Shown: positions 11,202 to 63,474, counted from the first letter of the stretch. The stretch: 64,000 nt of DNA from a virus (IMGVR_UViG_3300030430_004473:1-64000), one strand, 5' to 3'. Notes: generated by a model not told the origin, from the sequence alone. Program-made: numbers and translations.

Positions 11202-12188
11202 ATGAATGTATTAAGTTTGTTTGACGGAATTAGTTGTGGTCAATTAGCATTAAAGAATCTAGGTATTACACCGACAAATTATTTTGCAAGTGAAATAGAT
11301 CAATCAGCTATTGATGTAACAATGAAGCATTTTCCGAATACAAAACAGATCGGTGATGTTTGTAAAGTCCAAGCTAGTGATCTACCGAAGATCGATTTAC
11401 TGTTAGCTGGTTCTCCTTGTCAAGGTTTTTCAAGTGCTGGTAGAGGATTAGGACTAGAAGATCCTAGATCGAAGCTGTATTTTGAATTTGAACGATTATT
11501 GAAAGAAGTCCGGCCTACTTACTTCTTACTAGAAAATGTCGTGATGTTATCAAAGGATCTGAATTTGATATCAAGTAGATTAGGATATGAACCGGTATTT
11601 ATAAATAGTGGTCATTTTTCTATAGCTGAAAGAAGAAGATATTACTGGTCAAATATACCGATTCGGAAACTACCGATTGAAAACAATAAACAAGTAATAT
11701 CAGATGTATATCGAAAAGAAGATAAACGTGGAAAGTATCATATAGATATTAAGACGATCAAAGATAATGAACGAAAAAAAACATGTCGAGTAGCTTACAA
11801 TGAAAGATTTATGCAGTGGTCAGACAATCTGGATCACAAAGAGCATAATTATTATAGTCAGACATGTCGAGCTTATTACAGAAGTAGTAAATATCCTTGT
11901 GTTACTTGTACTCAACCGCCAAAATTTATTTCTCATGATGATAATTCAATAGTCTATCCTACAATTCGAGAAATAGAGCTGATGATAGGTTTACCGGAAG
12001 GATATACATCAATACATAACGCATATTATAAACGGCTTCATAACATAGGAAATGGGTGGGATATTCCAACGATAGAGCATATCCTTCAAGACATCCAGGC
12101 TTTGCTGAAGAATAATAAATATCAAGCTCGCAGACCTATCCAAATGCAGTTATTCAGAGATCCGGAGCTTGATTGTCAGATTGACTGA
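11202..12188 (+). CDS. DNA (cytosine-5)-methyltransferase
   Basis: LSLFDGISCG, GSPCQGFS, ENV, RRRYYW, GNGW. Confidence 0.92.
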   Translation: MNVLSLFDGISCGQLALKNLGITPTNYFASEIDQSAIDVTMKHFPNTKQIGDVCKVQASDLPKIDLLLAGSPCQGFSSAGRGLGLEDPRSKLYFEFERLLKEVRPTYFLLENVVMLSKDLNLISSRLGYEPVFINSGHFSIAERRRYYWSNIPIRKLPIENNKQVISDVYRKEDKRGKYHIDIKTIKDNERKKTCRVAYNERFMQWSDNLDHKEHNYYSQTCRAYYRSSKYPCVTCTQPPKFISHDDNSIVYPTIREIELMIGLPEGYTSIHNAYYKRLHNIGNGWDIPTIEHILQDIQALLKNNKYQARRPIQMQLFRDPELDCQID

Positions 12189-12198
12189 CTTCTAACTT

Positions 12199-12651
12199 CT
12201 AACTTTTATCGTTGAGAAGTTTGAACAACTGATATGACTTTTCAAAGTGGCCACCAAGATGAAGAGAGTTTTTAGCTCTAGATCTAGAGTCATTGGTTTG
12301 AATGATTTCAACGATTTTAGCATTGAGCTGGTTCTTTCTTCTGGTGCTCATTCCAACATAAACTTGGAATTCAGCTATAGTTTTGGTTCCTCTCTTACTG
12401 TTACATCTTTTGCAACAAGTGATGAGATTGTTAGCTAGATTGCTACCTCCCTGAGAATCCGGAACGATATGATCTAAAGATAAAGAATTCCAGAAGTCAT
12501 TTCTTTTGATATTATCTTTCTCTATCTGTGACTCAGACATGCCACAGTACCAGCACTTTCTTTGGTCTCGAAAGTAGATCGCTTGACGCTTTTCTCGCGC
12601 GATCCAGCTTCCAGCATGACGTTTTGCTTTGCGATTTCTTTTTGTAGGCAT
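12199..12651 (-). CDS. HNH endonuclease
   Basis: CWYC..LDHIVP..GG.N..NNLITCCKRCNSKRG. Confidence 0.9.
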   Translation of the reverse strand: MPTKRNRKAKRHAGSWIAREKRQAIYFRDQRKCWYCGMSESQIEKDNIKRNDFWNSLSLDHIVPDSQGGSNLANNLITCCKRCNSKRGTKTIAEFQVYVGMSTRRKNQLNAKIVEIIQTNDSRSRAKNSLHLGGHFEKSYQLFKLLNDKS

Positions 12652-12681
12652 AATAAACTCCGTTGTTGTTAGTCATAATTT

Positions 12682-12710
12682 ATTCTAACACAAAACGTAT
12701 TACTATACAA
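12682..12710 (-). promoter_or_regulatory. sigma70-type promoter for HNH gene
   Basis: TTGTAT-17-TAGAAT with extended TG; spacer AGTAATACGTTTTGTG shared with 50201-50216. Confidence 0.65.
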
Positions 12711-12722
12711 CAAAAAGAGAAT

Positions 12723-13259: not shown

Positions 13260-13317
13260 AATATCCTCCGTTGTAAGTAATAAATAATATGTATTGTTGT
13301 ATCTTTGCAGACAGCTT

Positions 13318-13527: not shown

Positions 13528-13613
13528 AACATTTCTACCAATGAATAAACCAACATCATCATAGCAATCCAAAGTATTCCGATTTCTAATTTAGATAGGT
13601 CGTTACGTTTCAT
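13521..13613 (-). CDS. 30-aa hydrophobic microprotein
   Basis: MKRNDLSKLEIGILWIAMMMLVYSLVEMLW; overlaps the stop of the GT gene and the start of the next gene. Confidence 0.4.
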   Translation of the reverse strand: MKRNDLSKLEIGILWIAMMMLVYSLVEMLW

Positions 13614-14826
13614 CTTTCAGCTCTAATTTGAAGTTATAATCTTGTATTCTATATGTATCTTTTATTTTGAGCTGTTGTTGAAATCTTTTGTAATCTACAT
13701 GATGATGATACCTATTAAATTTCTTTGTTACAGTTACACAATCGGGATGTTGATCTTGTAGCGATTTAGCAAACAGATATCTATCATCATTGTCAGTATA
13801 AACTGAATCAGTGTTACCACCTTTCATTCTCATAGAAGCTACTTTATCTCCCAAAAATGTAGCGAAGTTTATCGTGCAGAATCCGGCTTTTAAGATACGC
13901 AAACACAGATCTGTATCTTCATTGTACCGGCCTCGCCAAAGCTTTCCGTTTATCTTTATTTGGTTGTTTATTTCTTTATTCATTAAGCTCATAGAATAGA
14001 CTCTCGTATTCAAATAATACGGAGGAATACAGAAGTCATTTTTACAAAGTCCTAGATGATACATGCCTGATATTCCTACATTCGTATATCTATCAGTAAA
14101 GTCCTCTACAGCTGCAAATATAGCTGGTGACTTCACACGATAAGAAATGTTATTGGTCATTCTCCAGAAGTATCGAATATTATCATCAAGTAACCAGTAT
14201 TTTTGAGACGTTACATGATCATCAATCCAATTACGAACCGGAATAGAAGAAGCTGTTGTTGTATCAAAATCGCCAGTAATGACTCTATTTCCGTATATAG
14301 ATTGATAGGGTTCTATTTCATTAGGTTCTACTACGATATAGAAGTCAACGCCCATCCACATTAAAGTTTGAGCAGTTAAACAAGTTTCAGCTCTTCCTTT
14401 GCTTATTATGTATATTGGATATCTAGGTTTTATATCATCAGAAGTATAAATATATTTGTTGATACCTTTTTCATGCTTGTCTTTTTTAGGATACCAGATC
14501 GATTTTGTTTTTTCTGTAATCGGTTGTTCAAAGAAGTCACTGAGCTGATCACAAGTGAAGTTTGTTTTAAGTTCTATATGATGATACGGATATACTTTGA
14601 TTGATCGGTATTCTGGCATGTCGGTCCACTCAAAATCATCACAATTAATTTCATAGTGTTTCTTTTCTCGATTATCTTTTTTGGCAGTAATGATCGTAGT
14701 ATTGCCAAACAAATCCAGGCCGGTATTCATATCAACAGATCTATATTTGATTAGATCCATGTTTATCTTTTTAGAAATGCTTTCAACAGCTGAAATGCTA
14801 TCAAATCTTACTTGTATCGTTCTCAT
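13603..14826 (-). CDS. GREB1-like / TET-associated glycosyltransferase (GT-A), probable DNA base glycosylation
   Basis: PRYPIYIISKGR, WLLDDNI, WRGRYNEDTDL, MKGGNT motifs; GAGG RBS before ATG 14826. Confidence 0.75.
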   Translation of the reverse strand: MRTIQVRFDSISAVESISKKINMDLIKYRSVDMNTGLDLFGNTTIITAKKDNREKKHYEINCDDFEWTDMPEYRSIKVYPYHHIELKTNFTCDQLSDFFEQPITEKTKSIWYPKKDKHEKGINKYIYTSDDIKPRYPIYIISKGRAETCLTAQTLMWMGVDFYIVVEPNEIEPYQSIYGNRVITGDFDTTTASSIPVRNWIDDHVTSQKYWLLDDNIRYFWRMTNNISYRVKSPAIFAAVEDFTDRYTNVGISGMYHLGLCKNDFCIPPYYLNTRVYSMSLMNKEINNQIKINGKLWRGRYNEDTDLCLRILKAGFCTINFATFLGDKVASMRMKGGNTDSVYTDNDDRYLFAKSLQDQHPDCVTVTKKFNRYHHHVDYKRFQQQLKIKDTYRIQDYNFKLELKDET

Positions 14827-14893
14827 AGTATCCTCATAAGAAAGTGATAGCCTAACGTATTGTAGGCTATCTGTTGTTGTTCTATTTAGAAGA

Positions 14894-15514
14894 TTACCAC
14901 GGTTGATTATTTGCCCATTTGCGGATATCTGCTCCACGAATACCGTATGTCATTTGATAATCAGAACCTTCAGTATATTCATCTTCTACTCTCATATATC
15001 CACCGTCTGCAGCTGATTTTGATTTCATCCATTTTACATTTTCAAGTGCTTTATACAACCAGTGGAACCCCACACTGTACTGAAGATCATCCCATGAGTG
15101 GTTGTTTTCATCAGCATATAGTTCTATATATCCAGCTTCATCAAACGATACGTGATAGTGCTTAAAAAAAGCATTATCTATAAGATTTTGCTTTAGATCT
15201 TTTTGATTTAATCTTTTAATTTCTTTATTCCAAACTTTTCCGACAAGTTCTTCTTTTTCATCATACCAACCATGTGTTCTTAAACCGGTTGGAACGTATG
15301 ACCAATTATCTTTCTTAAAAACAGAAAAGACTACTGATAATTGTTCTTTTTCAGAAAGACTTTCCCACTTCTTTCTACTTTTCATGCTTTTCTTCTTTTC
15401 GTTTATTATTTTCACAAATTGATTGTGTTTTGTAACTATGTATTTGATGAGCTTGTTATATTCGCTCATTTTACCTATTTTGAAAGATCCCTTAGCTTCT
15501 TGATTACATGACAT
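14894..15514 (-). CDS. hypothetical protein
   Basis: AACAACGGAG RBS and own promoter. Confidence 0.7.
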   Translation of the reverse strand: MSCNQEAKGSFKIGKMSEYNKLIKYIVTKHNQFVKIINEKKKSMKSRKKWESLSEKEQLSVVFSVFKKDNWSYVPTGLRTHGWYDEKEELVGKVWNKEIKRLNQKDLKQNLIDNAFFKHYHVSFDEAGYIELYADENNHSWDDLQYSVGFHWLYKALENVKWMKSKSAADGGYMRVEDEYTEGSDYQMTYGIRGADIRKWANNQPW

Positions 15515-15556
15515 GATTTTTCTCCGTTGTTGAATGTTAGAATGTCTAGTAATAAT

Positions 15557-21183: not shown

Positions 21184-21821
21184 GGTAGTGCCATGACGAT
21201 TTGATCACCTTTCTGTATTCCGTTAGAAATGCATGAATTACAAGTTCCACAAGCTACATAGTTATTATTTATTTTAAGAGGTTGATAGCAGGAAGAACAA
21301 CATGAAAGAACATCAATCACAATGTGATTAGAATCATGAAAAATTTCGTCTTTGGCTATATCCATCAAAGGAGCTTCGATCCGAACATTCCAATCATCAG
21401 CTATAGAGTTAATCTTTTTCAGAAACTCAGGCCGGCAATCAACATAATCAGCTACATCATCCAACACGGCCCCGTATTGAATAACATTAGCACCGTTACA
21501 TACAGCTACATTTATAGCCATGTTGAGCATAATAGCGTTTCTATTAGGTACTACTCTAGATCCTGTGTTCCCACTTCCTATTTCCATAGATTTGGCATTG
21601 ATAGGCAAGTATAGACTTTGATATTCAAATGTATCATCATAATAAGATATCAGTTTCTTATAGATCAAAAGACTCGCTAACTTTTCAGCTTCTTTTGCTG
21701 GATGATCATAATCTATATGAAGTAGTAGAGCTTTTCCACTCTTCAAAGAAATAGCATGTTGAAGTGCTAGAATCGTGCTATCGATCCCACCGGAGAAAAG
21801 GATAATCTTCTTTACTGTCAT
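21180..21821 (-). CDS. queC: 7-cyano-7-deazaguanine synthase
   Basis: SGGIDS PP-loop, VPNRN, DCRPEF, SCY..CGTCNSC. Confidence 0.92.
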   Translation of the reverse strand: MTVKKIILFSGGIDSTILALQHAISLKSGKALLLHIDYDHPAKEAEKLASLLIYKKLISYYDDTFEYQSLYLPINAKSMEIGSGNTGSRVVPNRNAIMLNMAINVAVCNGANVIQYGAVLDDVADYVDCRPEFLKKINSIADDWNVRIEAPLMDIAKDEIFHDSNHIVIDVLSCCSSCYQPLKINNNYVACGTCNSCISNGIQKGDQIVMALP

Positions 21822-22650
21822 TTTTTCCAAGTCCTATATAGTCTGTGTCAATCAATAGCATTTCGTCATACGTTGATGAACAAATGCCAAAAATAGACAA
21901 TCGTTGTTGTAGTGTTTTAAGTATTGTAAATGTTAGTTTTTCTTCTAAAAATAATGTAGTTTGTTTCTTCTTCATAGCAAAGTAATTAATGAATTTCTTA
22001 TTGTGAGTAAGAAACTGAGTATAGCCGGACCCGTCTATGCTTTTTACTTTATGAGCTAGACAATACTTTAATCTTCTCATTGTGTTGACTCTACCAACAT
22101 GGCACCATACATCATGTTCCATACATAAAGAAGATATCCACGGAATAGCTTCTAGTTTTGGTTCTGTTGTTCCACCTACGAAAATACCATATCCTCTACT
22201 AACAAAAGGAAGAAGATCGTCTTTGGTCATGCCATCTTGCCAAACAAGTAATAACTTCGTATCTAGATCTAGTTGTTCTAACCGATCAATCCACTCATCA
22301 GCTTGTTCCAGTGTTGCTTTGCTATCTCCTACTACATCAGGAATCGCAATCCAGTCAGCTCCGTTTCCTAAGTCTTTACACATGTTAATAAATCGATCTT
22401 CATCAAAGTCTGTTCCTTTGTTGTAATCAATATAAGCACCGTTATCCAGGCCGTATCCTCTCAAGTTGATAGAATGAAGTAGATAGTCTTTTTTGTTCCA
22501 GAATTGTGGACTCAGTACAACACGCATAGCCAAACGAGAAAACACTTTATGACGTTGAATATCATTCTTTCTATGTACTGAATGAATGAAAGATCCATAC
22601 ATAACAATGTTCATTTCTTTATAGATATTATGATCGTCAGCTATTATCAT
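21778..22650 (-). CDS. TGT-fold (DpdA-like) DNA guanine transglycosylase candidate
   Basis: LDNGAY, PDVVGD, VWQ, FVGG, HVGRVNT, SIDGSG; first gene of the queC-queE operon. Confidence 0.65.
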   Translation of the reverse strand: MIIADDHNIYKEMNIVMYGSFIHSVHRKNDIQRHKVFSRLAMRVVLSPQFWNKKDYLLHSINLRGYGLDNGAYIDYNKGTDFDEDRFINMCKDLGNGADWIAIPDVVGDSKATLEQADEWIDRLEQLDLDTKLLLVWQDGMTKDDLLPFVSRGYGIFVGGTTEPKLEAIPWISSLCMEHDVWCHVGRVNTMRRLKYCLAHKVKSIDGSGYTQFLTHNKKFINYFAMKKKQTTLFLEEKLTFTILKTLQQRLSIFGICSSTYDEMLLIDTDYIGLGKNDSKEDYPFLRWDR

Positions 22651-51373: not shown

Positions 51374-52066
51374 ATGAGTAATGTAGCAAGTGATCAAGTA
51401 AGATATGACTGGATAGATTCGTTGACAGAACGGCCTAACCTATCACCGGAACAGAGCGAAAAATTGAGGATCTGGATATGTGGTGAAATGAGTAAATATA
51501 TCGGATCTAGAAAAACGTATCTATTAAAGAAGATAGTCAAAATGTATCCATCTTTAGTTTCAGCTGTCATGCTTGATTTGGCGGTGATAGTACAACGTGA
51601 AGAGCTGAAGGTACTTCGTAGAGAGCCTGGAGGAACACGTTGCGATTGTTGTGATCAATACGTTAAGGAATACAAAAGAAAGGTATCGAAAAACATGTGT
51701 GTATTTCTTCAATCACTTGTATTTCTATCAATGAAGTCAAAAAGTCAGGGAAAAGGTGAATATGTTCACTTCAAAGAATGTGACTATCATAGTCATGACT
51801 ATCCCTATGTTGTTCATTGGGGACTAGCTGAGCGTTCTGAAGAAGAACAAGGCATGTATAGACCTACTGATCTAGGAATAAAGTTTGCGTTTGGTAAATG
51901 CGAAATTCCGAAGTTTATCTATACATACAACAATCATAAAACAGGAATAGATAAAACCGAAATGGTAAAGATAACAGATGTTCATAGTGAACGATTTGAT
52001 CTTGAAGAAATGCTATCAAGTGTAGTAGAAGAATCGAATGTTATAGAATTGCGAGCTTCTGAATGA
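51374..52066 (+). CDS. hypothetical protein
   Basis: AGGAG RBS; CDCCDQ. Confidence 0.65.
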   Translation: MSNVASDQVRYDWIDSLTERPNLSPEQSEKLRIWICGEMSKYIGSRKTYLLKKIVKMYPSLVSAVMLDLAVIVQREELKVLRREPGGTRCDCCDQYVKEYKRKVSKNMCVFLQSLVFLSMKSKSQGKGEYVHFKECDYHSHDYPYVVHWGLAERSEEEQGMYRPTDLGIKFAFGKCEIPKFIYTYNNHKTGIDKTEMVKITDVHSERFDLEEMLSSVVEESNVIELRASE

Positions 52067-53172
52067 TGAAACTTGGCAGTTTGTTTTCTGGAATAGGTGG
52101 TTTTGAAATGGGCTTGAGTAAAGCTCTAACTTTCAAAACCGCTTTTCTATGTGATAACGATAAAGCTAACATATCATTACTGTCAAAGAGGTTTGACGAT
52201 ATACCAGTATATGATGATGTAAAGAATATCAATAAACAAACTGTAGATATGGATATAGATATTTTGTGTGGTGGTTTTCCTTGTCAAAATATTTCTATAG
52301 CAAATACTAAAACTAGAGACGGTCTAGCTGGGGCCAAATCTGGACTTTGGTTTGAAATGGTAAGAATCATAGAAGAATATAGGCCGGCTATCGTAGTTGT
52401 GGAAAATGTTCCAAATATCAGAAGTGTATGCTTAAATGAAGTATTGATTACGTTGCATAACATCAATTATTCTGTTGAATGGGTAACGATATCAGCTGAA
52501 CAGCTTGGGGCTCCTCATTTGCGTAGACGTTGGTTTGCCGTTGCATATCCGAATCATGACAAAGAATTAGATTATTATTTTGAAAGAAATATAGAAATGA
52601 AAGAATACTGGAATGAAGAAGCTAGTGTATCTGAAATGATACCAACAAATGATATTGATATTAAATATCGAAACAAGCAAAGAACGAGAGTTGAACAGCT
52701 TGGAAATGCTATCGTGCCGGCATGTAGTGAGCTGATAGGACATTGTATAAAAGACAGTTTTCTGATATCTGGAAATAGATCCGTATTCCCGAGTAAAGCA
52801 AAAATAAACGCTCGAATCAGAAATAATAGAATAATTAGCGATCAGCTGAATCTATGGAATACAGACAATGAATATTCAGAAGTACTACCACAAAACGGAA
52901 AAATGTTGAATGGTGTTCTATATGAGTCAAATGCAATATCATATACATTAGAACGCAAATACACAAAATCGTACTTCACCCCTTGCAAAGCTGACGGAAA
53001 AAGATTGAGTCATTGCGATTCTACTATGACTTTTGACACGTTGTTAATGGATATGCTCAGAAAGTTAGGAACTACTGACGAGGATCGAATCAAATACAAG
53101 TACATGGTGAATCCAAACTTTGTAGAGTATATGATGAACTTCCCACACGACTGGACTAAAAATGAAGCCTGA
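52063..53172 (+). CDS. DNA (cytosine-5)-methyltransferase
   Basis: SLFSGIGG, GGFPCQ, ENV, RRRWF, LGNA. Confidence 0.92.
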   Translation: MMKLGSLFSGIGGFEMGLSKALTFKTAFLCDNDKANISLLSKRFDDIPVYDDVKNINKQTVDMDIDILCGGFPCQNISIANTKTRDGLAGAKSGLWFEMVRIIEEYRPAIVVVENVPNIRSVCLNEVLITLHNINYSVEWVTISAEQLGAPHLRRRWFAVAYPNHDKELDYYFERNIEMKEYWNEEASVSEMIPTNDIDIKYRNKQRTRVEQLGNAIVPACSELIGHCIKDSFLISGNRSVFPSKAKINARIRNNRIISDQLNLWNTDNEYSEVLPQNGKMLNGVLYESNAISYTLERKYTKSYFTPCKADGKRLSHCDSTMTFDTLLMDMLRKLGTTDEDRIKYKYMVNPNFVEYMMNFPHDWTKNEA

Positions 53173-53293
53173 TTTTAAGAAGCTCATATCAAAAGCGTAT
53201 TATGATAAAGAAGTATTCAAGCGATTGAAACAAAATCATAATTTGCAATACAATAAAGTCATAGATAACATTATTACAAAACATTTTGGAGAT

Positions 53294-53872
53294 ATGAAAA
53301 TGAAACCTAGAATATTGAGCAGAGTAGAGCAGAACGGCTACATGACTTTTGAAAGAGGTCAGTACAATCTAAATATAATCGGTGTCAGATCGATAACGAG
53401 AGAAGCTAACAAGTTTGACGATTGGCTATATGTCGTTTACAAGGATGAATCTGATGAATGGGTACAGTTGAAATTTCAGATAACAACAGATCCAGGCCTC
53501 TATCACTTGCAGAATCCTAGTAGAGTTGAGGGTACAGCTATTCTGGTTGCCGGTCAATATAGAAGTAGTCATAAGTTAGGGCTTCACAGAGGAAAATACG
53601 AAGCTCTTACACAAGTTGGTAAAGTTAGAGTATATCGTGACAATACCAAAGACCGAGAGTTAGATCTAGAAGCTGAAACGTATCAAAATGGTTATTTTGG
53701 AATTAACATTCACCGATCCAATGCTACTAGAGAATCAACACAAGTAGATAAATGGTCAGCCGGATGTCAAGTTTTCGCTAACCCAAATGAATATGACATG
53801 TTTATATCGTTGTGTAAGAGATCAGCTGAAAAATGGGGTGATACGTTTACATATACACTATTAGAGGATTGA
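53294..53872 (+). CDS. putative endolysin (L,D-transpeptidase-like fold)
   Basis: TTDPG, FGINIH..WSAGCQV His/Cys motif; GGAG upstream of ATG 53294/53300 (ORF extends to 53162). Confidence 0.6.
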   Translation: MKMKPRILSRVEQNGYMTFERGQYNLNIIGVRSITREANKFDDWLYVVYKDESDEWVQLKFQITTDPGLYHLQNPSRVEGTAILVAGQYRSSHKLGLHRGKYEALTQVGKVRVYRDNTKDRELDLEAETYQNGYFGINIHRSNATRESTQVDKWSAGCQVFANPNEYDMFISLCKRSAEKWGDTFTYTLLED

Positions 53873-53873
53873 T

Positions 53874-54824
53874 ATGGGTTTGACAAAATTATCAAAAGAG
53901 AAATTAAGTAACAATCTTGATTTAGTTGTATCAGTAAGCGGAGGAAAAGACAGTACAGCTACATGTCTGTATTTGTTAGAAAACGGATATACAACGAATG
54001 ATTTTGAAAGAGTATTTTTTGATACAGGCTGGGAATCCAAAGAAACGTATGACTATTTAGATTACTTAGAAACTAAGATCGGAAAGATCACACGATTAAA
54101 GAAACATGTCGATATTTCTCAATTTCCGAAAGAAACGCAACAAATGATTTTAGAAATTGAAAGTGATCTAGGTTTTGAAAGCCCGTTTGTAAGACTATGT
54201 TTCTATCATAAGTGTATGCCTAGTAGATTTCGCAAGTGGTGTACTAGAAGCTTGAAACTAGAAGTAGTTAAAGATTATTTCGACAATCATGATAATGATG
54301 TAATATCTATCATAGGCGTTCGAAGAGCTGAAAGTAGAGCTAGAGCAAATGTAGAAGAATGGGATTATCATGATCATTTAGATTGTGATGTATGGAGGCC
54401 GTTATATCTATGGTCGGAAAAAGACGTAATTGATATACACAATAAGCATAATATTCTACCGAATAATTTGTATCTACAAGGAAGCTCGAGAGTGGGTTGC
54501 TATCCTTGTATTTATGCAAAGAAAAAAGAAATTTCTATTTTAAGTACAGAACGAATAAAAATAATTGAAAAATTAGAAAAGTATACTGGTATTCATACGA
54601 AAAAAACAACAAACACACAATCACAAATTGAAAGATTAGAAGAAGTAAAAGAAAAATACGGATATTATTTCAATCAATTTTTTTCAAGAAAAGAACATGA
54701 TCCTTTTTCTGAAGTTGTTCTTTGGAGCAAAACAACGCACGGTGGAAAACAATTTAAATTGTTTGATACAGACGAACCATCTTGTAGTAAATGGGGTTTG
54801 TGTTCAGTTTGGGAAAATAAATAA
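53874..54824 (+). CDS. PAPS-reductase-family PP-loop protein
   Basis: SVSGGKDS, DTGWE, RKWCT, GVRRAES, RVGCYPC. Confidence 0.85.
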   Translation: MGLTKLSKEKLSNNLDLVVSVSGGKDSTATCLYLLENGYTTNDFERVFFDTGWESKETYDYLDYLETKIGKITRLKKHVDISQFPKETQQMILEIESDLGFESPFVRLCFYHKCMPSRFRKWCTRSLKLEVVKDYFDNHDNDVISIIGVRRAESRARANVEEWDYHDHLDCDVWRPLYLWSEKDVIDIHNKHNILPNNLYLQGSSRVGCYPCIYAKKKEISILSTERIKIIEKLEKYTGIHTKKTTNTQSQIERLEEVKEKYGYYFNQFFSRKEHDPFSEVVLWSKTTHGGKQFKLFDTDEPSCSKWGLCSVWENK

Positions 54825-54839
54825 CAAAAGGAGAGGATA

Positions 54840-55520
54840 ATGTCTACAGACGAATCAAGTCAGAAAAGCAGACATCTACAATTAAATCTTTGCAAGATAT
54901 TGAACTTAGAAGAAGAAGAAGATTATAAAAAGATAAAGACAGATAATCTTACTCAGATAGGTTCGTCAGCTCATGCAGATAACGAAAGAGAAAAAAATGA
55001 CTTCTATGCTACGCCACAATCAGCTGTAGTTAATTTCTTAAATTGTTATCTATACAGAGATAAAGAAGTGTTAGATAAAAATCTATGGGAATGTTCCTGT
55101 GGGGATGGTGCTATATCGAAGATTTTGGAAAACAACGGATATAATGTTTTTTCATCAGATTTGATAGATAGAGGATATGGAGAACAAAGCGATTTTATGA
55201 CTTATCAAGAAAATGTTGGAGGTGGCGACATAATTACAAACCCACCTTTCAAATTGATTCTTCCTTTCTTAGAACACGCAATCAAATTATTAGAAAATGG
55301 AAATAAGTTAATATTCTTAATGCGTCTACTTTGTTTAGAAGGAAAGCAAAGAAACGAATTTTTTAAGAAACATCCAATTAAATATGTCTATATTCATACA
55401 ACGAGAATAGCTTGTACTTTGCCTGATGTTCAAACCAAACCAGTTACAGCGATAGCTTATGCTTGGTATGTATGGGAAAAAGGCTATGAGGGTGAAACTG
55501 TTATTCGTTGGTTGCCTTAG
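54840..55520 (+). CDS. DNA N6-adenine methyltransferase
   Basis: DFYATP, WECSCGDG, IITNPPF, YAWYVW. Confidence 0.85.
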   Translation: MSTDESSQKSRHLQLNLCKILNLEEEEDYKKIKTDNLTQIGSSAHADNEREKNDFYATPQSAVVNFLNCYLYRDKEVLDKNLWECSCGDGAISKILENNGYNVFSSDLIDRGYGEQSDFMTYQENVGGGDIITNPPFKLILPFLEHAIKLLENGNKLIFLMRLLCLEGKQRNEFFKKHPIKYVYIHTTRIACTLPDVQTKPVTAIAYAWYVWEKGYEGETVIRWLP

Positions 55521-55532
55521 AGGAATAGAACA

Positions 55533-56138
55533 ATGATACAATTACACAACAAAGATTGTCTGGAAGCTATGAAGTCAATGAAAACAGATCAATTTGATCT
55601 AGCTATTGTAGATCCGCCTTACGGAATGCTCGAGGCCGGTATGCAAATGGGTGGAAAAAAAGGATCTTCTTTTCAACGTAAAGAAGTAAACAAATGGGAT
55701 AAAAAGCCACCGAAAGAATATTTTGATGAACTGTTTCGAGTATCAAAGAATCAGATTATCTGGGGTGGTAACTACTTCGGTCTACCACCTACGAGAGAAT
55801 GTATTTGTTGGGATAAAAAGAATTGTATGCCGTCTTTTTCACGTTGGGAAATGGCATGGACCAGCTTCAAAGGTGTGATGAAAATGTATGAACATATAAG
55901 TCAAAATCCAAATAGAATACATCCAACACAAAAGCCGGTAGCTCTATATATGTGGCTACTTAATACTTATGCAAAGCAGGGAGATAAGATCCTAGATACG
56001 CATATCGGATCTGGCAGTATTGCAATAGCTTGCCATGAGCTGAAGTATGATCTTGAAGGTTATGAAATAAATAAAAAATACTATCAGAAAACAATGTATA
56101 GACTCAAACAACATCAAAGACAATTGAAATTATTTTAA
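55533..56138 (+). CDS. DNA N4/N6 methyltransferase (beta class)
   Basis: DPPY, HPTQKP, LDTHIGSGS. Confidence 0.9.
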   Translation: MIQLHNKDCLEAMKSMKTDQFDLAIVDPPYGMLEAGMQMGGKKGSSFQRKEVNKWDKKPPKEYFDELFRVSKNQIIWGGNYFGLPPTRECICWDKKNCMPSFSRWEMAWTSFKGVMKMYEHISQNPNRIHPTQKPVALYMWLLNTYAKQGDKILDTHIGSGSIAIACHELKYDLEGYEINKKYYQKTMYRLKQHQRQLKLF

Positions 56139-56152
56139 CGGAAATAACGAAC

Positions 56153-56761
56153 ATGATAAACATATACAATGAAGATTGTTTACAAGCTATGAAAAACATG
56201 AATGATAATAGTTTTGATCTAGCTATCGTTGATCCTCCGTTTGGAATTGGAAACTTTGTTCAAACTAGCGGGGCCAAACGTGGATCAAAAGTTGATTGGA
56301 ATGATAACATTCCGACAGAAGAATATTTTTCAGAACTGAAAAGAGTATCAAAGAATAGAATCATATTTGGAGCAAATTATTTTAATTGCTTTGAAGAAAA
56401 ATATGGAGCTATTATTTGGGTAAAAAATCAACCCATGCCGGATTTTTCAAAGGCCGTGATTGCTTCATGCACTTTTCACAAAAAGATTGAAATATATGAA
56501 CAAACATGGACTAACTTTGTAGCTAAAGGAAGAAGTACAAAACATCCTTGTGAAATGCCTGTTGGAATATACAAATGGATTTTGCGTAACTATGCAAAGC
56601 AAGGAGATAAAATATTAGATACTCACTTAGGCTCTGGTTCAATCGCAATAGCTTGTGATGATATGGGCTATTCGTTGGATGGGTACGAACTAGATACAGG
56701 ATATTATGAAGAAGCTTGTAAACGATTGAAACAACATCAAAGACAATTAAAGCTCTTTTAA
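56153..56761 (+). CDS. DNA N4/N6 methyltransferase (beta class), paralogue
   Basis: DPPF, HPCEMP, LDTHLGSGS. Confidence 0.9.
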   Translation: MINIYNEDCLQAMKNMNDNSFDLAIVDPPFGIGNFVQTSGAKRGSKVDWNDNIPTEEYFSELKRVSKNRIIFGANYFNCFEEKYGAIIWVKNQPMPDFSKAVIASCTFHKKIEIYEQTWTNFVAKGRSTKHPCEMPVGIYKWILRNYAKQGDKILDTHLGSGSIAIACDDMGYSLDGYELDTGYYEEACKRLKQHQRQLKLF

Positions 56762-56762
56762 T

Positions 56763-56791
56763 TTGCATACTAAATCATTTTGTGTAATACT
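56763..56791 (+). promoter_or_regulatory. promoter for candidate sRNA
   Basis: TTGCAT-17-(TGT)AATACT; spacer ATCATTTTGTGT identical to promoter at 49841. Confidence 0.55.
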
Positions 56792-56797
56792 TAAATT

Positions 56798-56906
56798 GTT
56801 CGTTGACAAAAACAGCCAAGCAATTTTTCTTCTCCGTTGTTAAAGTTTTAAGGAAATTTGCTTTTGAAAGGGTGACTCATTTCGTTGGTTGCCCTTTCTT
56901 CTTTTT
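56798..56906 (+). ncRNA. candidate trans-acting anti-RBS small RNA
   Basis: Intergenic; 14-bp stem 56818-31/56850-63 with loop CUCCGUUGUUAAAGUUUU; ends in terminator; loop antisense to AACAACGGAG RBS class. Confidence 0.6.
56866..56906 (+). terminator. rho-independent terminator
   Basis: GAAAGGGTGAC/GTTGCCCTTTC stem (two G.U pairs, so + strand specific) followed by TTCTTTTT. Confidence 0.8.
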
Positions 56907-56972
56907 GTCAGAAAGTGACCGACAAAGATAACACTCTTCATGTTATGAATAATTAACAAGGAGAATAGAACA

Positions 56973-58274
56973 ATGAACATAACAGAATATCGAACTGTAA
57001 TGAATAGATATGAAGATAGCGAACGAATCAAACAGATAGGCCCAGCTTGGACTTTTACAAATAGCGAATTCGTTGAGCTAGGTTGTAAAAGAAAATGGTC
57101 GTATGGTTATTTGATGAATATAGAAACAACAGAAAAAGGAGACGCTCTTTTATATGGGATCGTTTGGCATGTAGTAATGGAACATGCATTATTAAGAATG
57201 AAGAATACAGATACATGTATAACCAAAGAAGAAGCTCTGGAACTGATTGAAATCGTAGGAAGAAAGTCTTTTGAAGAAGAACGTGAAGCAATACAAGTAA
57301 TCGAAGAAGCTAAAGAAGAATGGATAGAAAACTGTTTGGATAGAATGAAAAGAGCTATCGTGGGTTGGTGCGATCATTGGGCTATACTTCATAAAGAATA
57401 CGAAATCATAGCAATAGAGCAAACTCTAGCCAGGCCTATACTTCATCCTCAGACCGGTGAAATCTATAGTCCAAAGACATATATAATAGAAGAAGATGAT
57501 TGTTTATATCCAGCTGGTATCAACAAAGAACGATCCAATTTGATTGATGTATGTATACCATACTGGAAAGTAGGAAAAGCTGACGCTATACTTCTCAAAC
57601 GTGGAACAAAATCGCTTTATATACTAGATCATAAGACAACATCACAACCTACTTCATACGAACGAAAGTTTTTATTTGATATGCAGTTATCTGGCTACTG
57701 TTCTCTACTTGATTACGAAATCAAACATGGAGATATGACGTATTTATCAAAATATGAAGTCAAAGGTGTCATTTGGGATCTATGTCATAGCAAAGTGCCA
57801 AAACCACCGGAACCGTTAAAGTCCGGCAAACTATCAACAGCTAAGGCCAAACTTGTTCCGAGTTGGATCTATGAAGAATCTATTATCAAATATGAATTAG
57901 ATCGAAGTGATTATGAAGAACATTTGGAAATGCTAAAGACCAAAGCAGATCCGAACTACTTCTGTTTTTTGATTACATCAATTAATGAAAATGACATGAC
58001 ACGATCTGTATTAGAAGATTATAGTACAGCTTGCTCTATGCATGAACTGAAAACAAAACTTATCAATGCTGATAATATGACATTCCAATATACAGCTTCT
58101 AGGTATCCTATATGTCAACAATATCTCAGCTGTAAATATAGCTATTTATGTCAACCGAATGTAGCAATCGAAGATATAAATGAAACAATAAAGCACAAAA
58201 TATATTGGAAAAAGATTGAAAATAATACAGATTATGATATAATTAACTCAGACCAATTAGGTCTACCTTTCTAA
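56973..58274 (+). CDS. PD-(D/E)XK exonuclease (RecB/Cas4-like)
   Basis: CKRKW, GIVWH, GKADAI..ILDHKT, QLSGY, C-terminal Cys cluster. Confidence 0.85.
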   Translation: MNITEYRTVMNRYEDSERIKQIGPAWTFTNSEFVELGCKRKWSYGYLMNIETTEKGDALLYGIVWHVVMEHALLRMKNTDTCITKEEALELIEIVGRKSFEEEREAIQVIEEAKEEWIENCLDRMKRAIVGWCDHWAILHKEYEIIAIEQTLARPILHPQTGEIYSPKTYIIEEDDCLYPAGINKERSNLIDVCIPYWKVGKADAILLKRGTKSLYILDHKTTSQPTSYERKFLFDMQLSGYCSLLDYEIKHGDMTYLSKYEVKGVIWDLCHSKVPKPPEPLKSGKLSTAKAKLVPSWIYEESIIKYELDRSDYEEHLEMLKTKADPNYFCFLITSINENDMTRSVLEDYSTACSMHELKTKLINADNMTFQYTASRYPICQQYLSCKYSYLCQPNVAIEDINETIKHKIYWKKIENNTDYDIINSDQLGLPF

Positions 58275-58290
58275 TTCAACGGAGAAAAAT

Positions 58291-59007
58291 ATGTCTTTTA
58301 AGATAGAAAAAGCTTCCAAAGCTTCAAGTAATGCACCGATCAAGGCTTTGATATACGGTGATTCTGGTGCAGGAAAAACAACCCTAGCAGTTACAGGGCC
58401 TGGACCGGTTCTAGTACTATTAACCGAACGTCAAGCGATTACATCAATCAACGCCTCCAATCCTGAGGCTGATATTATTTATGTCAATACAGCTCAAGAT
58501 GTAAGAAACGTGATAGGAGCTTTGCGAAATGGTGATAAATCACTAGCAAAATATAAAACATTAGTAGTCGATTCTTTGACAGAAACACAACGATTAATTC
58601 AAGACGATATACTGAAAAAGGCTAGAAGAGATAGTATGCAATTGCAAGATTACGGAAAACTCGCAGACGCAACGAAAGGACTCATCAGAACACTGAGAGA
58701 TCTACCTATCAACGTCATTTGTACCGCTCTTATGGAACACGATAACGAAGAAGCTACTGGAAAACGTCATTATAGTCCTATCTTTATCGGTAAGAAAACC
58801 GGTCGTGAAATCGCTCAATGGTTCACGATAATAGGTTACTTGTATCGTAGGGATGTAAAAGAAGAAAACGAACGTGTTTCTCAAAGATACGTTATGTTTG
58901 ATGGCCCTTCTACAGTACTTTGCAAAATCGCAAATCCGTTAGAAGGTATCATTAAAGATCCAAAAATGGATAATATCATTCAATCAATTCAACAATACAA
59001 AGGATAA
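58291..59007 (+). CDS. Sak4-like AAA ATPase (single-strand annealing)
   Basis: IYGDSGAGKT, TLVVDSLT, QDYG; between exonuclease and SSB. Confidence 0.8.
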   Translation: MSFKIEKASKASSNAPIKALIYGDSGAGKTTLAVTGPGPVLVLLTERQAITSINASNPEADIIYVNTAQDVRNVIGALRNGDKSLAKYKTLVVDSLTETQRLIQDDILKKARRDSMQLQDYGKLADATKGLIRTLRDLPINVICTALMEHDNEEATGKRHYSPIFIGKKTGREIAQWFTIIGYLYRRDVKEENERVSQRYVMFDGPSTVLCKIANPLEGIIKDPKMDNIIQSIQQYKG

Positions 59008-59016
59008 GGAGAAATC

Positions 59017-59643
59017 ATGCCAAAAATAAATCCTTCTGATCATCAATCATCCAATAATGATCGGAGATCAACAGAACCAATGAAAGCAGGAAAGAAGATA
59101 CTAGCACCAGCTTCGGCCTCTTTTCGATACACAATGAATCAAGAACGATATTGCGAAATATTTTATGTTTGTTTGCACGATCTTGATAATAAAGAAAACG
59201 GTGATGTAGGTAAAACGATAAGTCAACGATATCTATTAAGAGAATCGCATAACTGGAGATGGGCCGAACTAGCTGCCGTTTTAATGTATAGTGATGTATT
59301 CGATAATGAAGATCCCAAAGATGTTCAAGCTCTTCTCTTAAAGAATGGCAATCGTATCAAAGTAGATCTAGTAGATGATGAATATAACGGAAAGAAAAGA
59401 CTACAAATGAGAAACTTATCAAAAGTACTGAAAGACGGAAAAGTACCGGAATACACTGATAGCGAAGTCAAACATGTATCAGAAGCTGAAAGCAACTATG
59501 CAAAAGTCAATGAATACAGAATTGAACAAGGCTGGACTACTGAAATACTTCCAAAATATCAAAAGAGTACATCAAATGAACCAGATGAAAATGATGATTG
59601 GGATATTCCTGATGATGATGATAATAACGATATCCCCTTTTAA
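59017..59643 (+). CDS. single-stranded DNA-binding protein
   Basis: Acidic tail ending DDDDNNDIPF; position. Confidence 0.7.
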   Translation: MPKINPSDHQSSNNDRRSTEPMKAGKKILAPASASFRYTMNQERYCEIFYVCLHDLDNKENGDVGKTISQRYLLRESHNWRWAELAAVLMYSDVFDNEDPKDVQALLLKNGNRIKVDLVDDEYNGKKRLQMRNLSKVLKDGKVPEYTDSEVKHVSEAESNYAKVNEYRIEQGWTTEILPKYQKSTSNEPDENDDWDIPDDDDNNDIPF

Positions 59644-59656
59644 GGAATAAAGAAGA

Positions 59657-60229
59657 ATGATTGTTGTAGGTATAGATCCAGCTAGTAATGGAGCTGCTAC
59701 GATATTGAAAGATAAAGTAGCACAAGTCGTATTTGAATGGAAATGTAGAAATAGGAAAGCAGGCCGTGTCTATGTTCTATCTATATCTACATACGGTTCT
59801 GATGAAAAAACGGTCATAGATTGTAAATGTGGAGCTGATATAGGAGCACAAATAGGTGCGTATGTACTATTACTGAAAGAAGAAGATGAACTTTTTTATC
59901 TATGCAGTGAAGACGCCTATGTCGGTTCTAACAATCGAACAGCTATTATCGTATCTCGGTTTGCTGGGATGATAGCCGGATCTGTTCACAACTACACCAG
60001 ATCATTGAATAGAGTTATGTGGGTACAACCAAACAAATGGCGAAAAGAATTAATTTCGGTCCCATACTTCACAAAAAGAGAAGTAGTAAAAAAATACTCG
60101 CTTGAATACGTTCCAAAGAAAGTACCTACTGTAGATCATCATTTGGCAGTACTCGGAATACACGATCATATCACTGATTCGGCTGGCGTAGCTATGTGGG
60201 CTTGGAATGAAATAAACAAAGAACAATAA
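59657..60229 (+). CDS. RuvC-like Holliday junction resolvase
   Basis: VGIDP, EDAY, P.KW.K, DHITDS. Confidence 0.8.
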   Translation: MIVVGIDPASNGAATILKDKVAQVVFEWKCRNRKAGRVYVLSISTYGSDEKTVIDCKCGADIGAQIGAYVLLLKEEDELFYLCSEDAYVGSNNRTAIIVSRFAGMIAGSVHNYTRSLNRVMWVQPNKWRKELISVPYFTKREVVKKYSLEYVPKKVPTVDHHLAVLGIHDHITDSAGVAMWAWNEINKEQ

Positions 60230-60258
60230 ATATCGCTGTTTTTTACAACGGAATAAAC

Positions 60259-60747
60259 ATGCAAGATCACGAATTTGTATTCAATGAATACAACAAGTAT
60301 CGAAAACATATAAAGAAAAACAAGTCTGTCATATCAAACGCAAAGATTAAGAAAATCAAAGCAATATTAAAACAGACAACAAAAGACGATCTCATACTTC
60401 TATTTGAATATCTATCAAATAGCGAAGATGATTATGTAAAGTTTATCAATGGTGATAATGAAGCTCAACGATTCTACGGAACACTTGATAATCTTTTCAG
60501 AAAATCAAAGATCAAAGAAAAAATCAGTAGAGCTAAGAAATGGAAATCTCTACAAAACAAAAATATTCCTACTCAAGATCTATTCATGCCTTTTATGTTG
60601 CTAGAAAAATCAGAAGTAGATAAATATTATCAAAACGAATTCAACGAATACGAAGAATCAAGTGAAGAAGAAGAGCCCAACATAACACTCTCAAATCTTC
60701 AAATGTCTATCTTTGCTCAACAATCAAAGGACAACGAACAAAAATGA
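60259..60747 (+). CDS. hypothetical protein, possibly replication initiation-related
   Basis: Upstream of primase-helicase; QMSIF motif. Confidence 0.5.
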   Translation: MQDHEFVFNEYNKYRKHIKKNKSVISNAKIKKIKAILKQTTKDDLILLFEYLSNSEDDYVKFINGDNEAQRFYGTLDNLFRKSKIKEKISRAKKWKSLQNKNIPTQDLFMPFMLLEKSEVDKYYQNEFNEYEESSEEEEPNITLSNLQMSIFAQQSKDNEQK

Positions 60748-62681
60748 AATGGTATGAACAAATCAACGAATCAGGAATCCATTCAGTAGCTTCAGCACTC
60801 GGCCTAACGATCAGAAAAAATATGATTACACCATGCCCAGCTTGTGGAGCTGAAAAAAGAGGAACAAACGACAAACGACCTCCAATTGGTTTCATTAAGA
60901 ACCTCAAAGGCTGGACTTGTCACAAATGCAAAGCAACCGGCAATATTATCGATCTCATAGCATATACACTTCAAGATAAACGATACAGAGAACTACCTAA
61001 AGAAGATCGTAAAAAAGTAATGAACTGGGCTGAAGAAAACAAACTTTATATCAATCAACAAGCTGAAACATTCAAGAAAATAATCAGTACTTACAACCTC
61101 ACCGATCAACAAGTACCCACAAACAACACACCCGAAGAATCAAATAGCCCTTTCAAATGGGAAAAAGATATACATCTTAAATATCATAACAATCTTTATG
61201 ATATGCCCTTTGGCCTTCACGTTATTGAATACTTATACGATTATAGAAAGATCAAAGATAACGTCATACGAAAATTTCAACTCGGAGCTATGCTTGACCA
61301 ATTTGATAATATTTGGATCGTCATACCACTACGAAACAAAGAAGGTGAAGTTATAAATCTCAAATTCCGATCACTTCCCAAACAGGATGAAAAAAAGAAA
61401 ATACGACACTGTAGCGGTCGACCTATGACTCTATTTAATATAGATAACCTTGATCATCATTATGATACCAATATAATCATTACTGAAGGGGAATTTGATG
61501 TACTAGCATATCTATCAGCTAACCCAAATGTAAACGTCTGTTCTGGTACTACGGGGGCCAAATCCAACTGGCCTGATGATTGGCTAGACGCTATCGAACC
61601 CTTTGAAAATATCTATATCAATTATGATGATGATGAAACCGGTAAAGAAGGAGCTGATAAACTTTCATCAAAACTCGGAAAAGAAAGATGTTACAAAATG
61701 AAATGCGATACATACAACGACTTCAATGAATACATTATGAATAATGAGGAAACGAAATGGCTTGATGATATTCAAAAGTTTATAAACAAAGCTGTATCCT
61801 TTCAAGAACATATTGCTCTCAAAACCGTAAGCGACTATCTTGATGAACTCGAAGATCTTATATCAAATCCTCAACAACTCAGAGGACTCAAAACTTCATC
61901 CGCTAGAATAGATTCATGTGCCGGTGGCATAGGGGCCGGCTTATGGGTTATCACCGGTGACACAGGACACGGTAAAACAACATGGGCCACCTTTGAATGT
62001 TGGTATCAAGCTCAACAAGGCGTTCCTATCATGCTAACCTCTTTCGAACAATCTCCAATCGGAACATGTCAAAAACTTCTCAGGTGCCAACTCGGGCAGG
62101 ACTTCACAAAAGTATCTAAAGAACAACGAAGAACAGCTATGAACCAACTCGGAGCTATGCCTCTTTATATCCTCGATCAATATGGAAACGCTCTACTACA
62201 AGATATCATATCCTCTATTAAATACGCTCAAAGAAGATACAACATCAAAATAGCACTTATCGATCATCTAGGTTTTCTCATAAATACAGACCAAAACACT
62301 GATGAACGCAGAGAAATAGAAGCTGCTGTTAGAGAACTCGCCACCATAGCTATCGCTTCTCAACTAACTATATTCCTCATATGTCACCCTAATAACCTTT
62401 CAAACGTGCAACAACGCAGAGTTAAAATATCTGACCTCAAAGGTGCTTCAGCAATAAAACAAGACGCTCACGTTGGGGTAGTAGTACAACGTCAACCTAT
62501 AACAACAGAAAGACCATACCCAACAACTACTCTATTCTTTGATAAAGTTAGATCCGAATTCGGGCAAGCAGGCTCCCACTGTACTCTAGCTTTCGATCCC
62601 ATAGCATGTGTTTATAAAGATGAATGGGTATCCACACCAGCTGCTCAAAGAGGGGCCAAAATAATCGTACCAAATAAATAA
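60744..62681 (+). CDS. primase-helicase (T7 gp4/Twinkle-like)
   Basis: CPAC..CHKC, TOPRIM TEGEFD and YDDD, SF4 GDTGHGKT, IDHL, LKGASAIKQ. Confidence 0.9.
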   Translation: MKWYEQINESGIHSVASALGLTIRKNMITPCPACGAEKRGTNDKRPPIGFIKNLKGWTCHKCKATGNIIDLIAYTLQDKRYRELPKEDRKKVMNWAEENKLYINQQAETFKKIISTYNLTDQQVPTNNTPEESNSPFKWEKDIHLKYHNNLYDMPFGLHVIEYLYDYRKIKDNVIRKFQLGAMLDQFDNIWIVIPLRNKEGEVINLKFRSLPKQDEKKKIRHCSGRPMTLFNIDNLDHHYDTNIIITEGEFDVLAYLSANPNVNVCSGTTGAKSNWPDDWLDAIEPFENIYINYDDDETGKEGADKLSSKLGKERCYKMKCDTYNDFNEYIMNNEETKWLDDIQKFINKAVSFQEHIALKTVSDYLDELEDLISNPQQLRGLKTSSARIDSCAGGIGAGLWVITGDTGHGKTTWATFECWYQAQQGVPIMLTSFEQSPIGTCQKLLRCQLGQDFTKVSKEQRRTAMNQLGAMPLYILDQYGNALLQDIISSIKYAQRRYNIKIALIDHLGFLINTDQNTDERREIEAAVRELATIAIASQLTIFLICHPNNLSNVQQRRVKISDLKGASAIKQDAHVGVVVQRQPITTERPYPTTTLFFDKVRSEFGQAGSHCTLAFDPIACVYKDEWVSTPAAQRGAKIIVPNK

Positions 62682-62700
62682 CAAAGAACAGGAAACTAAC

Positions 62701-63474
62701 ATGAAATTATTACATGGTGATTGTCTTGAACTGATGAAAAACATTGAAGATCAAAGTATCGACATGATTCTATGCGATCTTCCTTATGGTACTACAGCTT
62801 GTAAATGGGATACTGTAATACCGTTTGATCTTCTTTGGCACCAATATGAACGAATTATTAAAACAAATGGAGCTATAGTTTTGTTTGGTCAAGAGCCTTT
62901 TTCTTCTCATCTCAGACTAAGCAACTTAAATCTTTATAAATATGATTGGATATGGAAAAAGTCTAACCCATCAAACATAGCACTAGCTAACAAACAACCT
63001 ATGCGATATCATGAACTCATATCTGTATTCTATAAAAAACAACCAACCTATAACAAACAAATGATTCAAAGATCTGAAAATGGATCTAAAGCTATAAAAA
63101 CACAACAAAAAAGCGGTAAACCATTTGTAAATAGACGCAGTGAACAAACAGGACTTAAACATATTGAAATAGATCCTAACAAATATAACACAAAACTCAA
63201 AAATCCATCTACCATATTAGAATTTAACTCTTTACGCCCTACATCTAAAGAATTCGTAAAACATCCAACTCAGAAACCAATATCACTACTTCAATATCTC
63301 ATTCTTACATACACAAACGAAAATGAAATTGTATTGGATAATTGCATGGGTAGTGGAAGCACTGGTATAGCTGCATACAATCTTAAACGTCAATTTATCG
63401 GTATCGAAAAAGATAACACCTACTTCAATCTTGCAAAAGAACGTATTCAAGATCATCAATGGAAACTATTCTAA
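62701..63474 (+). CDS. DNA N4/N6 methyltransferase (beta class)
   Basis: DLPYGTT, HPTQKP, LDNCMGSGST. Confidence 0.92.
   Translation: MKLLHGDCLELMKNIEDQSIDMILCDLPYGTTACKWDTVIPFDLLWHQYERIIKTNGAIVLFGQEPFSSHLRLSNLNLYKYDWIWKKSNPSNIALANKQPMRYHELISVFYKKQPTYNKQMIQRSENGSKAIKTQQKSGKPFVNRRSEQTGLKHIEIDPNKYNTKLKNPSTILEFNSLRPTSKEFVKHPTQKPISLLQYLILTYTNENEIVLDNCMGSGSTGIAAYNLKRQFIGIEKDNTYFNLAKERIQDHQWKLF

Follow-up and report, generated by a model that had tools for sequence, protein, structure and literature searches.

The window analyzed here (IMGVR_UViG_3300030430_004473:1-64000; "the window" denotes this whole 64-kb stretch) covers the leading 64 kb of a virus record of 75,827 bp, from an uncultured phage, with a CheckV completeness of 100% and a GC content of ~35%. 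Our subject is a set of short peptides, several of them at the C-termini of DNA methyltransferases (MTases) encoded in the window, that resemble the motifs by which bacterial proteins bind the sliding clamp DnaN (the beta clamp). The window contains virion genes (terminase, portal, major head protein, and long tail proteins) and a recombination and replication module with a PD-(D/E)XK exonuclease, a Sak4-like AAA_24 protein, a probable single-stranded DNA-binding protein (SSB), and a primase-helicase. The set of modification genes is unusually rich: two C5 MTases (PF00145), three PF01555 MTases, a phrog_799 MTase, and a PAPS-reductase-like protein, together with a DpdA-like protein with QueC, a radical S-adenosylmethionine (SAM) QueE-like protein, PTPS/QueD, and a TET-associated glycosyltransferase (TAGT). 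The last 12 kb of the record contain small open reading frames (ORFs) only.

The three PF01555 MTases end in a clamp-type peptide that directly precedes the stop codon. The first, a beta-class enzyme of 201 amino acids (aa) with a DPPY motif (55533..56138, + strand), ends in QLKLF-stop (nucleotides (nt) 56121-56135 for the peptide). Its paralogue of 202 aa, with DPPF (56153..56761, + strand), also ends in QLKLF-stop (nt 56744-56758), and the third, of 257 aa (62701..63474, + strand), ends in QWKLF-stop (nt 63457-63471). The three score 67.2, 56.6, and 108.5 bits against PF01555 (cut-off 26.7), and the catalytic motifs DPPY, DPPF, and DLPY and the SAM-binding GSGS are visible in them. The tails lie past the ends of the Pfam domain, at aa 186 of 201, 188 of 202, and 247 of 257, respectively.

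The tail peptide appears to be under selection. The paralogues at 55533 and 56153 are 51% identical overall, and their last 12 aa (RLKQHQRQLKLF) are identical, with at least five synonymous codon differences within the 12 codons; selection on the peptide is indicated by this identity of amino acids despite the synonymous changes and the low overall identity. The synonymous differences speak against a shared DNA element at the gene ends, or recent gene conversion, as the cause of the tails; we rejected a DNA element on these grounds and on account of the conservation across phyla described below. At the same position, a contig that is 96%-related (L001) encodes another MTase, of 411 aa, and that enzyme also ends in such a peptide, QMKLF-stop. 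This single MTase (L001:3341-4576) replaces the PAPS reductase, the phrog_799 MTase, and one PF01555 paralogue (53874-56761 in the window); the cassettes of the methyltransferase island swap between the window and L001 while the tail persists.

A comparable tail is found in a second MTase family. The C5-cytosine MTase of 328 aa at 11202..12188 (+ strand) has a PF00145 match that ends at aa 299 and a C-terminal extension of ~30 aa with QMQLF (aa 314; nt 12141-12155). The two PF00145 enzymes of the window score 134.6 and 143.1 bits (cut-off 22), with SPCQ/FPCQ and ENV present. About 115 of the 120 homologues listed for the enzyme at 11202 end directly after motif X (GNGWTVDVIAHIF..), and the extension is confined, among these homologues, to the query cluster and four full-length homologues with 45-48% identity. 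All five extension-bearing enzymes keep Q[IMG][QMR]LF (p~8e-7). Judged by this comparison of sequences, the subclade is a separate gain of the tail, in another methyltransferase family.

A third type of carrier is gp60259, a protein of 162 aa (60259..60747, + strand) whose gene adjoins that of the primase-helicase and whose ~40-aa extension consists of an acidic linker followed by QMSIF (aa 148; nt 60700-60714). Its syntenic homologues in L002-L008 are 113-139 aa long and stop before the acidic linker and QMSIF, and the nearest Atlas clusters have lengths of 121-127 aa. QMSIF is probably a clamp-type motif on an added extension.

The motif is concentrated in modification proteins. The initial annotation, made from the sequence of the window, had listed ten such peptides on almost every DNA-modification enzyme, and every one of them is present at its gene; an eleventh, QLTIF at aa 540 of the primase-helicase, was absent from that list. 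We scanned the proteome (99 ORFs, 23,106 aa), in which 12 proteins (3,204 aa) make up the modification class and six the replication/recombination class. The pattern Q[LMFWT].[LI][FW] has nine matches: seven fall in modification proteins, for which shuffling gives a mean of 0.28, two in the replication/recombination class, and zero in all the rest of the proteome (18,026 aa), so the concentration that had been claimed is borne out. The neutral pattern Q..LF occurs six times in modification proteins versus once elsewhere (Fisher p=4e-5). The two QLKLF tails belong to paralogues and are hence non-independent counts; with these two collapsed to one, p=3e-4. The form Q-x-x-[L/M/I]-F or QLxLx[L/F] is fitted by QLKLF (twice), QWKLF, QMQLF, QMSIF, and the exonuclease peptide QLGLPF. 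Most of the motifs had been described as terminal or located in linkers; only six of the 11 lie within the last 16 residues. Each of the six proteins with a motif in that position is either a methyltransferase or a member of the replication/recombination class. The motif is missing from QueC, QueE, and QueD, which act on small molecules, and this fits a tag meant for DNA-acting enzymes.

The likely target of the tails is the clamp of the host. Six-frame searches of the whole 75,827-bp genome gave no match for either DnaN domain (N or C), for PolA, PolB, or Pol III alpha, or for the N-domain of gp45. The initial annotation had noted the lack of a polymerase and a clamp for the window; by these domain searches it is true of the whole complete record. 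Judging from this gene content, replication of the phage most likely relies on the host replicase and the host clamp, and it is because the genome is without PolA, PolB, Pol III alpha, and DnaN that we take the host clamp to be the probable partner.

Similar tails recur in homologues from other phages. For the MTase at 62701, we compared the 150 nearest representatives at the 50%-identity level; nine of them have Q..[LIM]F within their final 15 aa (expected 0.13; p~2e-14), and looser variants of the tail are commoner among the same 150. Cultured phages supplied 17 homologues of the MTase at 55533; in ten of these, Q..[LM]F lies at the C-terminus or close to it, and four more have partial forms. 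The phages with the full motif are Streptococcus IPP30 (QLKLF-stop), Lactococcus D4351 (QISLFDEV-stop), Tetrasphaera TJE1, Rhizobium 16-3 (QPDMF), Tenacibaculum JQ, Nonlabens P12024L, Cellulophaga Nekkels_1, Flavobacterium 11b, lillamy, and hemulen. DnaN and PolA were not found in five of these cultured phages (four with the full motif and one with a partial form). Because tails of this kind are common to phages of Bacillota, Bacteroidota, Actinomycetota, and Pseudomonadota, the partner of the tail must be widely conserved, which fits DnaN.

A structure prediction places the tail of the MTase at 55533 in the peptide-binding pocket of DnaN. We modeled the full-length enzyme with DnaN of E. coli, used as a stand-in for the host clamp, from an 86-row alignment. 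The interface score (ipSAE) was 0.62, in contrast to 0.00 for the best of three controls; of 80 solved complexes, 58 attain the mark applied to this score, as do two of 110 mismatched pairs. The runs shared at least 87% of their contacts, and the confidence for the partner (predicted local distance difference test, pLDDT) was at least 77. In the model, tail residues 193-201 contact beta residues 172, 174-177, 242, 247, 320, 344, 346, 360, and 362-365, which we take to be the known DnaN peptide-binding pocket. The predicted docking thus agrees, with the stand-in clamp, with the DnaN binding that had been proposed from the sequence. Solved complexes of beta with peptides exist, and the model may pass because of its likeness to them. 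As a prediction, the model supports binding of this tail to DnaN.

Based on the tails, their conservation, the gene content, and the predicted docking, we favor, as the probable reading, that the terminal MTase tails are true beta-clamp-binding motifs used for replication-coupled modification. This claim covers the terminal tails; it extends neither to the motif of the PAPS-reductase-like protein nor to the tail of the exonuclease, nor to any internal or N-terminal motif. The three PF01555 MTases, the C5 MTase at 11202, and probably also gp60259 would carry clamp-type Q-x-x-[L/I]-F short linear motifs. Since the phage lacks a polymerase and a clamp of its own alongside its primase-helicase, SSB, and recombination proteins, its genome would be copied by the Pol III holoenzyme of the host, which would leave DnaN rings on the new duplex. 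Tails of moderate affinity would concentrate the MTases on these rings, such that nascent DNA would be methylated at or just behind the fork, and protection from host restriction would be the presumed outcome.

The initial annotation had gone further and proposed that unrelated modifiers were convergently tagged. This proposal is supported for the terminal tails of the PF01555 and PF00145 MTases and for gp60259; the tails lie outside the Pfam domains, and those of the MTases are conserved and recurrent. It is not supported as it stands for the PAPS-reductase-like protein, in which the motif is part of a family-invariant, ordered block, or for the exonuclease, in which the core of the tail is SSB-tip-like (acidic residues and LPF-COOH), and it is without support from conservation for QLNLW, QTTLF, and QLNLC. 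The three PF01555 tails may also be inherited instead of convergent.

Several observations weigh against clamp docking, and some of them favor other explanations. None of the motifs matches the strict form QL[SD]LF, position 3 being K or Q. The motif is also absent from the TAGT, which glycosylates DNA. MTases without a tail occur in relatives that share the replication module (561 aa in L003 and 327 aa in L009), and since the MTases of these more distant relatives do without it, the tail is not obligatory. The contrast between types of replisome is small: Staphylococcus phage Terranova has its own PolA and no tail, and Lactococcus phage AM12 has no tail, yet searches for PolA and PolB found neither in it. 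Given AM12, a clean rule by which phages with their own replisome have no tail is not established. In the AF2 (AlphaFold 2) monomer of the MTase at 55533, the last helix (residues 181-200, pLDDT ~95) runs through the tail, which is thus modeled as ordered, and the linker before the tail has only ~8-10 residues. This continuous helix is what would be expected if the tails served the enzyme itself, through helix extension, dimerization, or contacts with DNA or the SAM site, or if they bound another conserved partner, and the Q..LF of the PAPS-reductase-like protein is an example of the same pattern as an ordered, family-invariant block. However, most close homologues do without the tail, as for an optional add-on, the same pentapeptide is found on another MTase family (PF00145) and on gp60259, and the predicted complex has the tail docked in the pocket of DnaN, the best control scoring 0.00. 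We therefore consider a role within the enzyme, or with a partner other than the clamp, to be unlikely.

A different use of the same binding would be to take over the clamp, so that host polymerases, Hda, and repair proteins would lose DnaN by titration. When over-expressed, the MuC protein of phage Mu upsets the Hda-DnaN control of initiation (bioRxiv 10.1101/2025.01.04.631326), and several clamp binders produced together would compete for the pocket. However, the tags are on DNA-acting enzymes and absent from other early proteins, and the phage most likely needs the host clamp for its own replication. Titration is possible as a side effect of docking or as an alternative to it; as the main purpose of the motifs we think it improbable, even more so than a role within the enzyme. 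Least probable by far is that the motifs reflect mere chance or composition, with their apparent concentration inflated by a pattern defined post hoc. The pattern Q[LMFWT].[LI][FW] was indeed fitted to the matches afterwards, the regular expression of the initial annotation included, which is why the neutral Q..LF was also used; QLNLW, QTTLF, and QLNLC are unsupported; and QLTIF lies in the helicase core. Nevertheless, Q..LF is still 37-fold enriched, and purifying selection acts on the tails, which are retained in phages of several phyla. For the terminal tails, chance is already contradicted. Fork-coupled methylation by clamp-docked MTases remains the reading that we prefer.

Among larger phages, the type of tail might be linked to the type of replisome. 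Agrobacterium phage Atu_ph07 (L043, NC_042013.1 298392-299150), a 490-kb jumbo phage with its own PolB, has a PF01555 homologue that ends in DGLFEF-stop, not in Q..LF. Going by its sequence, this tail may match a phage-encoded clamp; the gp45 C-domain Pfam model found no clamp in Atu_ph07. The link is suggestive only.

It is well established that polymerases and repair proteins of bacteria carry clamp-binding motifs. The DnaN consensus is QL[S/D]LF, as in QLGLF of Pol II and QLNLF of UmuC, and the peptide occupies two subsites with contacts to Gly-174 and Pro-363 (PMC3716654). The phage tails share with these clients a Q at position 1, L-F at positions 4 and 5, and a usually C-terminal location, and the tail that was modeled, from the MTase at 55533, is placed in the same two-subsite pocket. 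They differ in that the carriers are phage MTases, that position 3 is K or Q instead of S or D, and that position 2 is L, M, or W. A full-text literature search found no paper on clamp-binding motifs of bacterial or phage DNA methyltransferases.

The nearest functional parallel is eukaryotic. DNMT1 binds PCNA (PMC9690074), and in both cases an MTase has a clamp-docking peptide (predicted here) and new DNA would be methylated where it is replicated. DNMT1 uses a PCNA-interacting-protein (PIP) box on PCNA, in contrast to the bacterial motif on DnaN here, and the tags are non-homologous. Moreover, the virus would use the clamp of its host, and the presumed aim would be self-protection from restriction, not epigenetic inheritance. 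Two phage systems offer further comparisons. In phage Mu, the transcription factor MuC requires the beta clamp of its host (bioRxiv 10.1101/2025.01.04.631326); as proposed for the MTases, it is a non-polymerase phage protein with a clamp motif aimed at host DnaN, but the clamp is used there for late transcription, whereas here there are several tagged DNA-modifying enzymes. In phage T4, gp43, gp33, and gp55 dock on gp45 by C-terminal tails (PMC9690074). There too, unrelated phage proteins have one common C-terminal peptide for a sliding clamp, but T4 has its own clamp and another type of peptide; the DGLFEF-stop tail of Atu_ph07 may belong to that type.

The contribution of this record is the combination of a complete genome that lacks both clamp and polymerase and thereby implicates the clamp of the host, the evidence of selection on the tail, the separate gain in a C5 MTase, and the occurrence of the tail in culturable phages. 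If clamp docking is correct, it would give a physical answer to how phage DNA gets modified before restriction: the MTase would ride the ring left behind by the polymerase. DNA-modifying enzymes would join the list of beta-clamp clients, and bacteria and phages would gain a counterpart of DNMT1-PCNA. The tail may also serve as a sequence mark that separates phage self-protection MTases from other orphan MTases. The same tail is present in culturable Streptococcus, Lactococcus, Flavobacterium, and Rhizobium phages, and the idea is therefore directly testable. More tentatively, and with chances that we put slightly below even, clamp docking could be a general, cross-phylum strategy of phage orphan DNA MTases and some other DNA-acting enzymes, in which a C-terminal peptide, gained repeatedly and matched to the replicating clamp, makes self-protective modification co-replicative. 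Polymerase-less phages would use host DnaN for this, and the GGKQ..LF block of the PAPS-reductase-like proteins might be an ancient instance.

The tail of the exonuclease could be read in two ways. The PD-(D/E)XK exonuclease (56973..58274, + strand; PF12705, phrog_1218) ends in QLGLPF-stop (nt 58254-58271 for the peptide). It is followed by the Sak4-like AAA_24 recombinase (58291..59007, + strand; PF13479) and, two genes downstream of the exonuclease, by the probable SSB (59017..59643, + strand), whose tail, read from the sequence, is DDDDNNDIPF-stop. This SSB has no Pfam or PHROG match itself, and its syntenic homologues end in EIPF, DIPF, or ELPF. Exonuclease homologues with 52-57% identity retain Q[LI][GS]LPF; the tails include EDKQISLPF and SDQLGLPF, and variants are NNFKLPF, QQKLPF, and TQLPF. 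In three related loci the exonuclease ends in SDDDLPF (L003:9959-11272), EEKALF (L004:9965-11257), or DDEVISW (L007:9968-11272), and the SSBs of the same loci end in EIPF or DIPF.

QLGLPF and QISLPF fit the hexapeptide clamp form QLxLx[LF], and they resemble QLSLPL of Hda and QLVLGL of Pol IV. The part of the tail that is constant family-wide, however, is acidic residues followed by LPF-COOH, with the Q present only in the nearest clade, and an acidic run with [I/L]PF-COOH is found in the exonuclease homologues and in the probable SSB, which ends in DIPF. The tail could thus be a mimic of the SSB tip, bound by readers of the phage SSB tip such as the Sak4-like recombinase or by host SSB-interacting proteins, and would couple resection to annealing. 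In phage HK620, Sak4 requires the six C-terminal residues of the phage SSB (PMC5928155), and a nuclease may have borrowed this recruiting peptide. The likeness is to the C-terminal tip of SSB (DDDIPF), which the exonuclease and its homologues share with the probable SSB of the phage; the difference is that a nuclease carries the tip here and that its tail also fits QLxLxF. From the sequences, we regard a clamp motif and an SSB-tip mimic as about equally likely.

The motif of the PAPS-reductase-like protein is a feature of its family. This protein of 316 aa (53874..54824, + strand; PF01507, phrog_424) contains QFKLF at aa 293 (nt 54750-54764), within a block GGKQ[FYLM]x[LM]FD...P.C.KWG[LM]C that is nearly invariant among the 120 homologues listed. 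In a longer form, the block reads W.KT.RGGKQ[FY]xLFD...P.C.KWG[LM]C and lies beyond the solved PAPS/APS reductase core. The AF2 model has a mean pLDDT of 94, with ~80 for residues 291-300 and no disordered segment. In a Foldseek search, the core of the model (~207 residues) matches the PAPS/APS reductase fold, with the C-terminal block not covered. The paired cysteines of the block recall the ECGLH tail of CysH. Since QFKLF is a family-invariant feature that is modeled as ordered, we rejected it as an acquired tag and do not count it as one.

Three other motifs on modification proteins are unsupported as clamp tags by sequence comparison. The second C5 MTase, of 369 aa (52063..53172, + strand; PF00145), has an internal QLNLW (aa 261; nt 52843-52857). 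Its homology to cultured-phage MTases ends at ~aa 230-239 (tblastn), before the motif, and the sole relative found is 92% identical. The DpdA/TGT-like protein of 290 aa (21778..22650, - strand), assigned by homology to DpdA-like proteins, has QTTLF at aa 230 (nt 21949-21963). Homology to annotated DpdA-like proteins spans aa 66-217 only and excludes the motif, and the related-locus search found no relatives that keep the C-terminal part. QLNLC is near the N-terminus (aa 14; nt 54879-54893) of a protein with a phrog_799 DNA MTase core (54840..55520, + strand), in which the phrog match starts at aa 26, and it lies in a part without alignable homologues; it is weak, without a terminal F or L, and neither QLNLW nor QLNLC has a terminal Phe. 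The eleventh motif, QLTIF (nt 62361-62375) in the context ASQLTIFLICH, belongs to the primase-helicase (Toprim and DnaB_C; 60744..62681, + strand). We rejected it as a docking peptide since it lies inside the DnaB_C ATPase core (match at aa 381-603).

The phage has no close cultured relative by the searches that we made. Megablast of 52000-64000 against cultured phages gave no match, and the best cultured-phage match of the terminase has at most 24% identity. The genome has no tRNA genes. The nearest MTase homologues and the low GC hint at a host among the Bacteroidota, which is doubtful since 58 of 99 genes have GGAG-type Shine-Dalgarno sites upstream. Over the whole genome, AACGGAG(A) precedes the starts of many accessory or early genes, and TAGGAG(A) those of many virion genes.

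Three further genes lie near the modification or virion genes. The TAGT (444 aa; 13603-14937, - strand; PF20691 5e-28, phrog_842) is encoded just downstream of the C5 MTase at 11202, on the opposite strand. A search of the whole genome for a Tet_JBP domain gave no match, which leaves the source of a 5-hydroxymethyl substrate for the TAGT unaccounted for. An ORF of 1,265 aa (5015-8812) is located between the portal and major head genes; it has no significant Pfam family, and its only match, to DUF5824, is below threshold. Lastly, a 236-aa phrog_3000 protein (53162-53872) adjoins the MTases, has 50-57% identity to its counterparts in the relatives L004, L005, and L009, and always ends in ..[FY]TL[IL][ET]E.

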